A program made the position numbers. DNA of 37,584 bases, taken from IMG/VR virus record IMGVR_UViG_2537562191_000055. One strand, written 5' to 3'. The stretch is from a virus. Lineage: Duplodnaviria; Heunggongvirae; Uroviricota; Caudoviricetes. Positions 33,001 through 36,000 of this stretch are shown piece by piece (the first letter of the stretch is position 1; every line of letters starts with the position of its first letter).

Positions 33001-36000
33001 GGCTTTTTTGTTTTTCTTTACTTTCATTTTCTGTCGGCGGTGACGGAGACATACATCAGATGGAAAAAATCACAACAGGTGTGTCATACACCACGTCAGC
33101 GGTGGGGACGGGATACTGGTTACTGCAGCTGCTGGACAAAGTCTCTCCGTCCCAGTGGGTGGCAATAGGTGTGCTGGGAAGTCTGCTGTTTGGCCTGCTG
33201 ACGTATCTGACAAATCTTTATTTCAAGATTAAAGAAGATAAGCGTAAGGCTGCGAAAGGTGAATAATGTCGCCGTCATTACGCAAGGCTGTTGCAGCTGC
33301 TATTGGTGGTGGGGCTGTTGCCATAGCGTCTGTGCTCATCACTGGTCCAGGTGGTAACGATGGTCTGGAAGGTGTCAGCTACATACCATACAAAGATATC
33401 GTTGGCGTATGGACTGAACCGCCCCGGAAATCCTGGAGACTAAACTCCCTGAGAAAGAGGTAAACAGGATGACTAAAAATACTCGTTTTTCCCCCGAAGT
33501 CCGTCAGCGGGCGATTCGTATGGTTCTGGAAAGTCAGGATGAATATGACTCACAGTGGGCGGCAATTTGTTCCATTGCCCCAAAGATTGGCTGTACGCCG
33601 GAGACTCTGCGTGTCTGGGTTCGCCAGCATGAGCGGGATACCGGGGGCGGTGATGGTGGGCTCACCAGCGCTGAACGTCAGCGTCTGAAAGAGCTGGAAC
33701 GTGAAAATCGTGAACTGCGCCGCAGTAACGATATCCTTCGCCAGGCTTCCGCTTATTTTGCGAAGGCGGAGTTCGACCGCCTCTGGAAAAAATGATGCCA
33801 CTGCTGGATAAGCTGCGTGAGCAGTACGGGGTCGGACCGGTATGCAGCGAACTGCATATTGCCCCGTCAACGTATTACCATTGTCAGCAACAGCGACATC
33901 ATCCGGATAAACGCAGTGCCCGTGCGCAGCACGACGACTGGCTGAAGAGAGAGATACAGCGCGTATACGATGAAAATCATCAGGTGTACGGTGTGCGTAA
34001 AGTCTGGCGTCAGTTGTTACGGGAAGGAATCAGGGTGGCCAGATGTACAGTGGCACGTCTCATGGCGGTTATGGGACTTGCCGGTGTTCTCCGGGGTAAA
34101 AAGGTCCGTACGACCATCAGCCGGAAAGCCGTTGCCGCAGGCGACCGCGTAAACCGTCAGTTCGTGGCAGAACGACCTGACCAGCTGTGGGTGGCTGATT
34201 TTACTTACGTCAGCACATGGCAGGGCTTCGTCTATGTGGCGTTTATCATTGATGTGTTTGCCGGATACATCGTGGGGTGGCGGGTCTCATCGTCTATGGA
34301 AACGACATTCGTGCTGGATGCGCTGGAGCAGGCGTTGTGGGCCCGTCGTCCGTCTGGCACCATCCATCACAGCGATAAAGGCTCTCAGTATGTGTCACTG
34401 GCCTATACGGAGCGACTAAAAGAAGCCGGATTACTGGCATCAACAGGGAGTACAGGCGACTCGTATGACAACGCGATGGCTGAGAGCATCAATGGTCTTT
34501 ACAAAGCGGAGGTAATACACCGTAAGAGCTGGAAAAACCGTGCAGAAGTGGAACTGGCCACACTAACGTGGGTGGACTGGTATAACAATCGACGATTGCT
34601 GGGAAGGCTGGGCCATACTCCTCCGGCAGAAGCAGAAAAAGCTTATTATGCTTCCATCGGAAACGATGATCTGGCAGCCTGAGTTCACAGATAAAACACT
34701 CTCCAGGAAACCCGGGGCGGTTCAGACTGTATGTCACGGACACACCGGAAAAGACATCATGCCCGGTAAAACGTATACCGAAGCAGAATGCAAAGCCCTC
34801 CTGAATAAAGACCTTGCCACGGTCGCCAGACAAATTAACCCGTACATCAACGTCGATATACCGGAAACAACGCGCGGCGCTCTTTACTCGTTCGTTTACA
34901 ACGTGGGCGCTGGCAATTTCAGAACATCGACGCTTCTTCGCAAAATAAACCAGGGCGATATCAAAGGCGCATGTGATCAGCTACGGCGCTGGACATACGC
35001 TGGCGGTAAGCAATGGAAAGGGCTGATGACTCGCCGCGAGATTGAGCGTGAAGTCTGTTTGTGGGGGCAACAATGAGCAGGGTAACTGGATGTGGTGCTG
35101 GACGAGGCGAAGTCATGAGCGCCGGGATTTACCCCCTAATCTTTATATAAGAAACAATGGATATTACTGCTACAGGGACCCAAGGACGGGTAAAGAGTTT
35201 GGATTAGGCCGAGACAGGAGGATAGCAATCACTGAAGCAATACAGGCCAACATTGAGTTATTTTCAGGACACAAACACAAGCCTCTGACAGCGAGAATCA
35301 ACAGTGATAATTCTGTTACGTTACATTCATGGCTTGATCGCTACGAAAAAATCCTCGCCAGCAGAGGAATCAAGCAGAAGACTCTCATAAATTACATGAG
35401 CAAAATTAAAGCAATAAGGAGGGGGCTGCCTGATGCTCCACTTGAAGACATCACCACAAAAGAAATTGCGGCAATGCTCAGTGGATACATAGACGAGGGC
35501 AAGGCGGCGTCAGCCAAGTTAATCAGATCAACACTGAGCGATGCATTCCGAGAGGCAATAGCTGAAGGCCATATAACAACAAACCCGGTCGCTGCCACTC
35601 GCGCAGCAAAATCAGAGGTAAGGAGATCAAGACTTACGGCTGACGAATACCTGAAAATTTATCAAGCAGCAGAATCATCACCATGTTGGCTAAGACTTGC
35701 AATGGAGCTGGCTGTTGTTACCGGGCAGCGAGTTGGTGATTTATGCGAAATGAAGTGGTCTGATATCGTAGATGGATATCTTTATGTCGAGCAAAGCAAA
35801 ACAGGCGTAAAAATTGCCATCCCTACAACATTGCATGTTGATGCTCTCGGGATATCAATGAAGGAAACACTTGATAAATGCAAAGAGATTCTTGGCGGAG
35901 AAACCATAATTGCATCTACTCATCGTGAACCGCTTTCATCCGGCACAGTATCAAGGTATTTTATGCGCGCACGAAAAGCATCAGGTCTTTCCTTCGAAGG

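Follow-up and report, generated by a model that had tools for sequence, protein, structure and literature searches.

In phage lambda and its relatives 434 and HK97, the integrase gene int belongs to the early leftward operon and forms a module with xis and the attachment site attP. Lambda xis contains the promoter pI, and excision of the prophage by Int requires the Xis protein. Lambdoid prophages of enterohaemorrhagic Escherichia coli (EHEC) are well known to decay and become immobilised in the chromosome, and the insertion sequence (IS) IS629 is a main driver of this process. The IS-excision enhancer (IEE), which has been reported in O111:H8, promotes the excision of IS629 together with adjacent deletions of a few nucleotides to more than 40 kb, and has a microhomology-mediated end-joining polymerase activity (PMC9943667). 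The locus that we describe here is an instance of such decay. It lies in a stretch of 37,584 nt (IMG/VR record IMGVR_UViG_2537562191_000055, hereafter the window), which comprises most of a lambda-family prophage at att-lambda; in strain 11128 (NC_013364.1), this prophage is found between ybhC and ybhB/bioA. We focus on the interval in which the first codons of the spanin gene Rz are followed, after a short filler, by int. We think it probable, at roughly 0.72, that part of the prophage was inverted in place in an O111 clone of E. coli that produces Shiga toxin (STEC), that this interval is the junction surviving from the inversion, and that the latter was complemented by one IS629-associated deletion.

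The main reference for our comparisons was a sister lambdoid prophage integrated at ybhC/ybhB in strain E2865 (NZ_AP018808.1 885600-935500), whose int region was matched together with those of named O26 and O103 strains in 5,426 complete E. coli genomes. The gene order of the sister is canonical: ybhC, int, xis, the early genes, CII, O, P, ren, nin, an LpxR-family gene, Q, nanS-p, S, R, Rz, Rha, terminase, portal, tail, J, lom, tail fibre, nleH, and cif. It has in common with the window the integration site, the region from int through attL to ybhC (99.96% identity), the LpxR-family gene, Q, nanS-p, the holin gene, and R (99-100%), as well as Lom, the tail fibre, NleH, and Cif. It differs in encoding xis, the early genes, CII, O/P, Rz, Rha, terminase, and a full portal protein, whereas in the window the block from ren to R is inverted, about 17 kb are missing, and the remnant of Rz (Rz'), the filler, and int are joined. 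The window also resembles the grounded EHEC prophages shaped by IS629 and IEE: it has an IS-associated deletion without target duplication, and related strains show IS excision and an IS-bounded inversion at the locus. In contrast to these prophages, its Rz'/int joint has no IS and carries an untemplated, or partly templated, filler of 18 nt, which is not the usual signature of IS629.

The junction between Rz and int

The 3' part of the endolysin gene R (34725..35076, plus strand) is 100% identical to the R of the sister, matches the Pfam family Phage_lysozyme (E=6e-39), and encodes a protein ending in LWGQQ. Its TGA stop codon (35074-35076) overlaps the ATG of Rz (35073-35075), exactly as the original prediction, made from the sequence alone, had it. 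The Rz stub itself (35073..35086, plus strand) consists of the first 14 nt of the gene, which read MSRVT, as established by alignment to the intact Rz of strains EH2252 and E2865. It is followed by the 18 nt of the filler (TGGATGTGGTGCTGGACG; 35087..35104, plus strand), which match neither parent and carry a new start codon for int at 35090. Homology to lambda int begins at 35105. The prediction of five Rz codons followed by lambda int thus placed both parts correctly, but it overlooked the filler between them and the fact that int resumes at its nucleotide 10.

Both edges of the junction are sharp. The blastn match to the R-Rz region of the sister is 100% identical over 362 nt and ends at 35086, and the match to its int-attL-ybhC region is 99.96% identical over 2,480 nt and begins at 35105. 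The breakpoint was also placed by alignment, as had been proposed with the original prediction, and the intact R-Rz of EH2252 and E2865 gave the same end, while the intact xis-int and lambda int gave the same start. The abrupt interruption of such long perfect alignments on either side indicates a structural breakpoint and not a chance resemblance.

The stub and int are juxtaposed in the DNA, and they do not make a translational fusion of Rz with Int. Translation from the Rz ATG gives MSRVT and then 20 junk codons, for an open reading frame (ORF) of 25 codons, whose frame differs from that of int. The earlier description of an Rz start fused to int therefore holds for the DNA and fails for the protein, because int is an intact ORF of its own. 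An Rz spanin has an N-terminal membrane anchor and a periplasmic domain, and its gene harbours that of the lipoprotein Rz1. Five codons (14 nt), compared with the 145 aa of Rz in the sister, do not make a spanin, and the embedded Rz1 is gone as well. The Rz of the sister, used as a tblastn query, had no match in the window.

We found the junction, with 99.8-100% identity, in 46 of the 5,426 complete E. coli genomes. All the records among these 46 that name a serotype are O111; the remainder bear strain names only. The exact Int variant of 358 aa is present on at least 1,000 contigs. An assembly error at an IS629 repeat, the caveat raised with the original prediction, can be discarded: 46 complete assemblies share the joint, which sits 350 bp outside the nearest IS629 copy (IS-2, see below), and this copy has a perfect target duplication. 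We also considered, and rejected, a natural allele of int starting with MWCWT, since all the other int matches in the complete genomes and in 50,697 phage records begin at 35105 and have xis upstream. We found no published description of this Rz'/filler/int junction in the literature searched.

Several searches were made for the source of the filler. There is no second copy of it in the window with up to three mismatches, nor any copy in the sister prophage and the locus of strain RM9131 with up to four. A scan of the genomes of GTDB for the exact 18-mer only returned scattered unrelated taxa, as chance predicts in 596 Gb. Among the 12 matches in IMG/VR, two are the same junction and the others lie in unrelated contexts, so that no donor emerged. 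No IS sequence was found at the joint, and a comparison by eye of the flanks of both ancestral breakpoints revealed no convincing microhomology or inverted repeats. The only local resemblances are with the neighbouring lysis genes. The first 9 nt of the filler equal the antisense strand of Rz 105 nt past the break, and 7 further nucleotides equal the sense strand of R 100 nt ahead of it; shuffling the filler yields a local match of 9 nt or longer in about 5% of cases (p about 0.05). These matches are a weak lead rather than an established origin, and they may fit a templated, polymerase-assisted end-joining or a template switch. One can be more specific and suppose that an error-prone end-joining polymerase, for example the PrimPol-type IEE of EHEC, made a templated insertion. 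The junction would then be the scar of an IEE-type microhomology-mediated joining that resulted in an inversion and not in a simple excision. We regard this version as quite improbable.

Inverted block and missing genes

The blastn comparison with the sister shows which part of the prophage changed direction. The tail and effector region and the int-ybhC region keep the mutual orientation that they have in the sister, whereas the block from ren to R (23817-33414 and 34725-35086) is reversed. This bears out the earlier claim that the nin-Q-S-R genes are on the strand of int, opposite to their normal orientation relative to the late genes. The larger part of the block (23817..33414, plus strand) includes a remnant of a DnaC-like gene, a ren-like gene, the nin genes, the LpxR-family gene (on the minus strand), Q, the esterase gene nanS-p, S, and the 5' part of R. 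It matches the sister in forward direction, while tail and int match it in reverse; it has Pfam matches to NinB, Q, LpxR, and SASA, and its flank is native in F344. The gene S (33060..33266, plus strand) is an intact ORF, and in O111, where the sequence is identical, RefSeq lists it as a 'class II holin family protein'. It is followed by the 5' part of R (33266..33414, plus strand), which is contiguous with the R of the sister and ends in a GAC that is one of the target copies of IS-2.

The missing 17 kb correspond to two intervals of the sister without counterpart in the window. The first, from 2539 to about 13900, runs from xis through the replication genes. The second, at 26761-32324, includes the rest of Rz, Rha, the cos region, the two terminase subunits, the head-tail joining gene, and the first 1000 nt of the portal gene. 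We used as tblastn queries 22 proteins from the lost intervals and the intact F344 relative of the O111 replication module. The sole matches were residues 332-530 of the portal protein and the last ~13 aa of the DnaC-like protein; Xis, Erf, Kil, CIII, CII, the repressor, Cro, O, P/DnaC-like, Rz, Rha, TerS, TerL, and W are otherwise absent from the window, in agreement with the RefSeq annotation of strain 11128. The searches and the annotation thus uphold the predicted absence of xis, the repressor gene, cro, O, P, and terminase, and the interval of the cos region has no counterpart. What is left of the portal gene (21915..22507, minus strand) encodes only the C-terminal ~197 aa, with a Pfam match restricted to the last 28 positions of the profile.

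The replication genes are absent, as had been predicted, but the module that was lost was not the one with lambda P. At 23817-23855 lies the 3' end (39 nt) of a replication gene for a DnaC-like ATP-binding protein. This gene is intact in F344, and the ancestor therefore had a replication module of the DnaC type rather than lambda O/P, unlike the sister. The neighbouring ren-like protein is only 41% identical to the one of the sister.

The similarity to the sister is informative on the origin of the block. The genes Q-nanS-S-R are 99-100% identical, on par with the flanking int and tail-fibre/effector regions. By segment, identity is 99.05% from the nin genes of the RusA region through the 5' part of R, 100% for the 3' part of R, and 99.96% for int-ybhC. 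Such near-identity argues that the block is native rather than imported. The ren/nin-proximal part is a mosaic relative to the sister, with identities of 81-97%, and one could imagine that, after a large deletion had joined int to the portal region, a different lambdoid phage or prophage supplied nin-Q-S-R-Rz', which was inserted in reverse. EHEC genomes would offer many similar lambdoid prophages as donors, given that the R query matched 3-9 places per genome. Against such an import, Q-nanS-S-R is as close as its flanks to the sister, which occupies the same att site; two illegitimate joints would be needed in addition to the deletion; and the fit of both missing intervals to a single deletion after an inversion would go unexplained. 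We consider it very improbable.

IS629 copies in the window

Three copies of IS629 are in the window or at its edge. We recognised elements of the IS629/IS1203 type (IS3 family) by a length of ~1310 bp, terminal inverted repeats (TGAACCGCCCCGG...), a frameshift pseudoknot in orfA/orfB, and, for a simple insertion, 3 bp of duplicated target. The copy IS-2 (33415..34724, plus strand) has the repeats, an ALIL frameshift pseudoknot (33750-33866, Rfam), and a duplication of GAC (33412-33414 and 34725-34727); it is a simple insertion in R. Because this duplication is perfect, R must have been whole, and co-directional with int, when IS-2 inserted.

The copy IS-1 (1,309 bp; 22508..23816, minus strand) also has the repeats and the pseudoknot, and is frameshifted by a 1-nt deletion. 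It lacks a target duplication: its flanks are CAT, in portal DNA (…ATCAT), and CTT, in the 39-nt remnant of the replication gene (CTTGCG…). IS-1 and IS-2 differ at 13 positions, including the 1-nt deletion of IS-1, and all of them are within nt 94-295 from the left end. These differences make recombinant copies traceable in other strains. The third copy (window 1-381, minus strand, near espJ), inside which the window begins, is present in strains RM9131 and 110512 and absent there in 11128, and is therefore a polymorphic insertion.

Proposed inversion and deletion in the history of the prophage

The two lost intervals are not adjacent in the canonical map. They become contiguous only once the block is inverted, and IS-1 lies exactly at this point. 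Hence, one inversion and one IS629-associated deletion would explain all the differences, and on the available sequences this is the most parsimonious history. It is also the history suggested by the original prediction, with breakpoints in Rz and at the start of int, and it is further supported by the absence of a target duplication at IS-1. We observe where the breakpoints lie, which way the segments point, which genes are gone, and how each IS is flanked; from this we infer the order of the events and the mechanism of joining, as follows.

In the orientation of the window, the ancestor would have had tail, head, portal, terminase, cos, Rz, R, S, nanS, Q, nin, and the replication genes leftward, then the early genes, xis, and int rightward, and finally attL and ybhC. 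The segment between codon 5 of Rz and codon 3/4 of int would have inverted in a first step. One end would have been sealed by non-homologous joining, which left the 18 nt of the filler and put nin-Q-S-R-Rz' upstream of int and co-directional with it. In a second step, the reciprocal junction of the inversion would have been lost in a single IS629-associated deletion at the place now occupied by IS-1. To one side of that junction, the deletion would have taken xis and the genes for recombination, immunity, and replication; to the other, what was left of Rz, along with cos, terminase, and the 5' part of the portal gene. Separately, and at any stage of this history, an IS629, IS-2, would have inserted into R with duplication of GAC.

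Some observations weigh against this history. The reciprocal junction is deleted, so the inversion has to be deduced from a single junction, and we found no intermediate genome. The filler has no identified source, and two or more successive events might have taken place at the junction. The sister is an imperfect proxy of the ancestor, given the mosaicism of the ren/nin-proximal part. Finally, IS629 is demonstrably active at this locus, as shown by a flipped block in RM9131 and RM9975 and by an excision and a deletion in E2855. This makes a multi-step route mediated by IS realistic, even if it involves more events.

IS629 activity at the locus in related strains

In the O111 strains RM9131 and RM9975, the block from ren to the 5' part of R is flipped between two inverted copies of IS629 (RM9131 locus 7847-20036), and the late genes corresponding to positions 4809-22507 of the window are deleted. 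The right end of the left IS copy adjoins the 5' part of R. Homologous inversion between IS-1 and IS-2 cannot produce this arrangement alone, because it would leave the left copy in the other orientation; this copy looks as if it had flipped in place. Strain 110512 only has the deletion of late genes.

Strain E2855 has the same prophage at the same site and has lost IS-1 together with three native nucleotides, CTT (locus 10600-10680), without leaving a filler. At the flanks of its IS-2 (locus 20190-21570), 4 nt are deleted on one side and 571 nt on the other; with these deletions went the 3' part of R, the Rz'/filler/int joint, and 204 nt from the start of int. We considered whether E2855, which lacks IS-1, could represent an ancestral deletion joint free of IS. 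This was ruled out by the missing CTT, which is native in F344 and retained in the window, and which shows that the state of E2855 derives from an IS excision.

These events bear on a route in which IS629 would have made the junction itself. Inverted copies upstream of xis and downstream of Rz would have recombined homologously and flipped the early and lysis region; transposase together with IEE would then have excised the copy located between Rz and xis. This excision would have taken flanking DNA along, namely Rz beyond the stub, xis, and nucleotides 1-9 of int, and end-joining would have left the 18-nt filler. The sister does have an IS629 about 640 bp upstream of the start of int, in RM9131 and RM9975 this block is flipped and lies between IS629 copies in inverted orientation, and E2855 combines a clean excision of IS-1 (the IS plus 3 nt) with a deletion adjacent to IS-2. 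The presence of IEE in O111:H8, the range of its deletions, and its end-joining activity (PMC9943667) would also suit such a route. However, the junction shows no IS remnant, and the sole excision observed at the locus, that of E2855, left no filler. The IS629 copies of the sister are only 95-96% identical to those of O111, which leaves a shared ancestral insertion unsupported. The route also takes about twice the number of events of a direct inversion. We rank it second, as unlikely but realistic, and favour the direct inversion followed by an IS629-associated deletion.

Integrase gene and attachment site

The int gene of the window is an ORF of 358 codons (35090..36166, plus strand) annotated as intact in RefSeq (WP_000263438.1). 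Its ATG lies within the filler, in the frame of int, and the protein starts with MWCWTRRSHERRD, that is, MWCWT followed by RRSHERRD. It has MWCWT in place of the MGR encoded by the first three codons of lambda int and thus lacks the native N-terminus of the arm-binding domain. The match to lambda (J02459) begins at 28873, which is nucleotide 10 of int (coding sequence 27812-28882). From there on, residues 4-356 of lambda Int align without gaps and 348 of the 353 are identical. The active-site residues of lambda Int are R212, K235, H308, R311, H333, and Y342. None of the five substitutions (N/S, H/P, A/T, I/V, and R/H) falls at these positions. As judged by its sequence, Int retains full-length catalytic and core-binding domains and is a lambda-type tyrosine integrase.

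The attachment site is preserved too. The attL (36167..36254, plus strand) has the P' arm and the 15-bp core (36240-36254) of lambda, followed by the bacterial attB arm: it is identical to lambda attP through the core, and continues with the host flank as in O26. The core, GCTTTTTTATACTAA, is found at both prophage ends in strain 11128, where the core of attR is intact; attR lies outside the window. Next comes the host gene ybhC (36301..37584, plus strand), identified from RefSeq, which annotates an identical sequence, and marking the flank of att-lambda on the gal side. The cores, the P' arm next to int, and the ybhC/ybhB flanks identify an att-lambda prophage. Compared with the lambda/434/HK97 module, the window thus shares Int from residue 4 onwards, the P' arm, and the core; it differs in the first codons of int, in the loss of xis, and in the place of int, which comes after the lysis genes and not in the early leftward operon.

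This new place affects how int might be expressed. It is now downstream of Q-nanS-S-R, on the same strand, and a scan for consensus motifs between R and int revealed no plus-strand terminator or promoter. With xis lost, and pI with it if the ancestor was like lambda, int could be expressed solely through read-through from the late lysis operon or from IS629.

One might then ask if the arrangement was selected, such that the in-frame ATG and the co-orientation with the late operon would have been kept because Int made from the late promoter benefits the host. The filler does preserve the frame and supplies an ATG with AGGG 7 nt upstream, an outcome to which our own rough estimate gives a chance of a few percent, and the residues of Int aligned to lambda 4-356 are 99% identical. 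However, the clone is young, which makes the identity across the 46 genomes uninformative on selection; the int gene of E2855 lacks its first 204 nt, and nothing there hints at compensation; and Int cannot excise the prophage without Xis. A selected rewiring of int seems to us hardly credible.

A presumably grounded prophage and its cargo

The gene content suggests that the prophage cannot leave the chromosome. Without Xis, no excision is expected, even with int and attL intact here and attR intact in strain 11128. More broadly, the functions of an inducible lambdoid prophage are lacking: Xis, repressor/Cro, the replication genes, and cos/terminase are missing, the portal gene is truncated, R is split, and Rz/Rz1 are gone. 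This supports the original prediction of a prophage unable to excise, replicate, or package its DNA that nevertheless keeps its effectors, lom, and nanS-p. The gene of the minor tail protein L (11968-12665, minus strand) is split in two overlapping ORFs and annotated by RefSeq as frameshifted in 11128 and E2855, which represents an extra structural defect.

In the window, the genes of the cargo are intact, namely nleH, cif, lom, the LpxR-family gene, and nanS-p. The cif gene (2565-3395, minus strand) is an intact ORF of 276 aa, as in RM9131 and 110512, and is annotated as frameshifted in 11128. The LpxR-family gene encodes a lipid A deacylase and is located between ninH and Q, on the opposite strand (26923-28097); it is also present in the sister and is an added cargo gene of a typical kind. 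Next to it is a fragment of 72 nt with the annotation of a truncated antitermination protein.

This locus leaves the current view of prophage decay unchanged, and illustrates, resolved to the base, how a lambdoid prophage that carries virulence genes comes to be fixed in the chromosome of EHEC. An inversion and an IS-linked deletion would have stripped excision, immunity, replication, packaging, and lysis functions, sparing the genes encoding NleH, Cif, Lom, the LpxR-family protein, and NanS-p. The flux of IS629 is ongoing among the sequenced strains, in the form of block flipping, IS excision, and adjacent deletions. What makes the case mildly unusual is the filler, which recreates an in-frame start for int and is possibly the record of a templated end-joining. 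Given the 46 matching complete genomes, the junction and the Int starting with MWCWT are a candidate marker for the O111 lineage.

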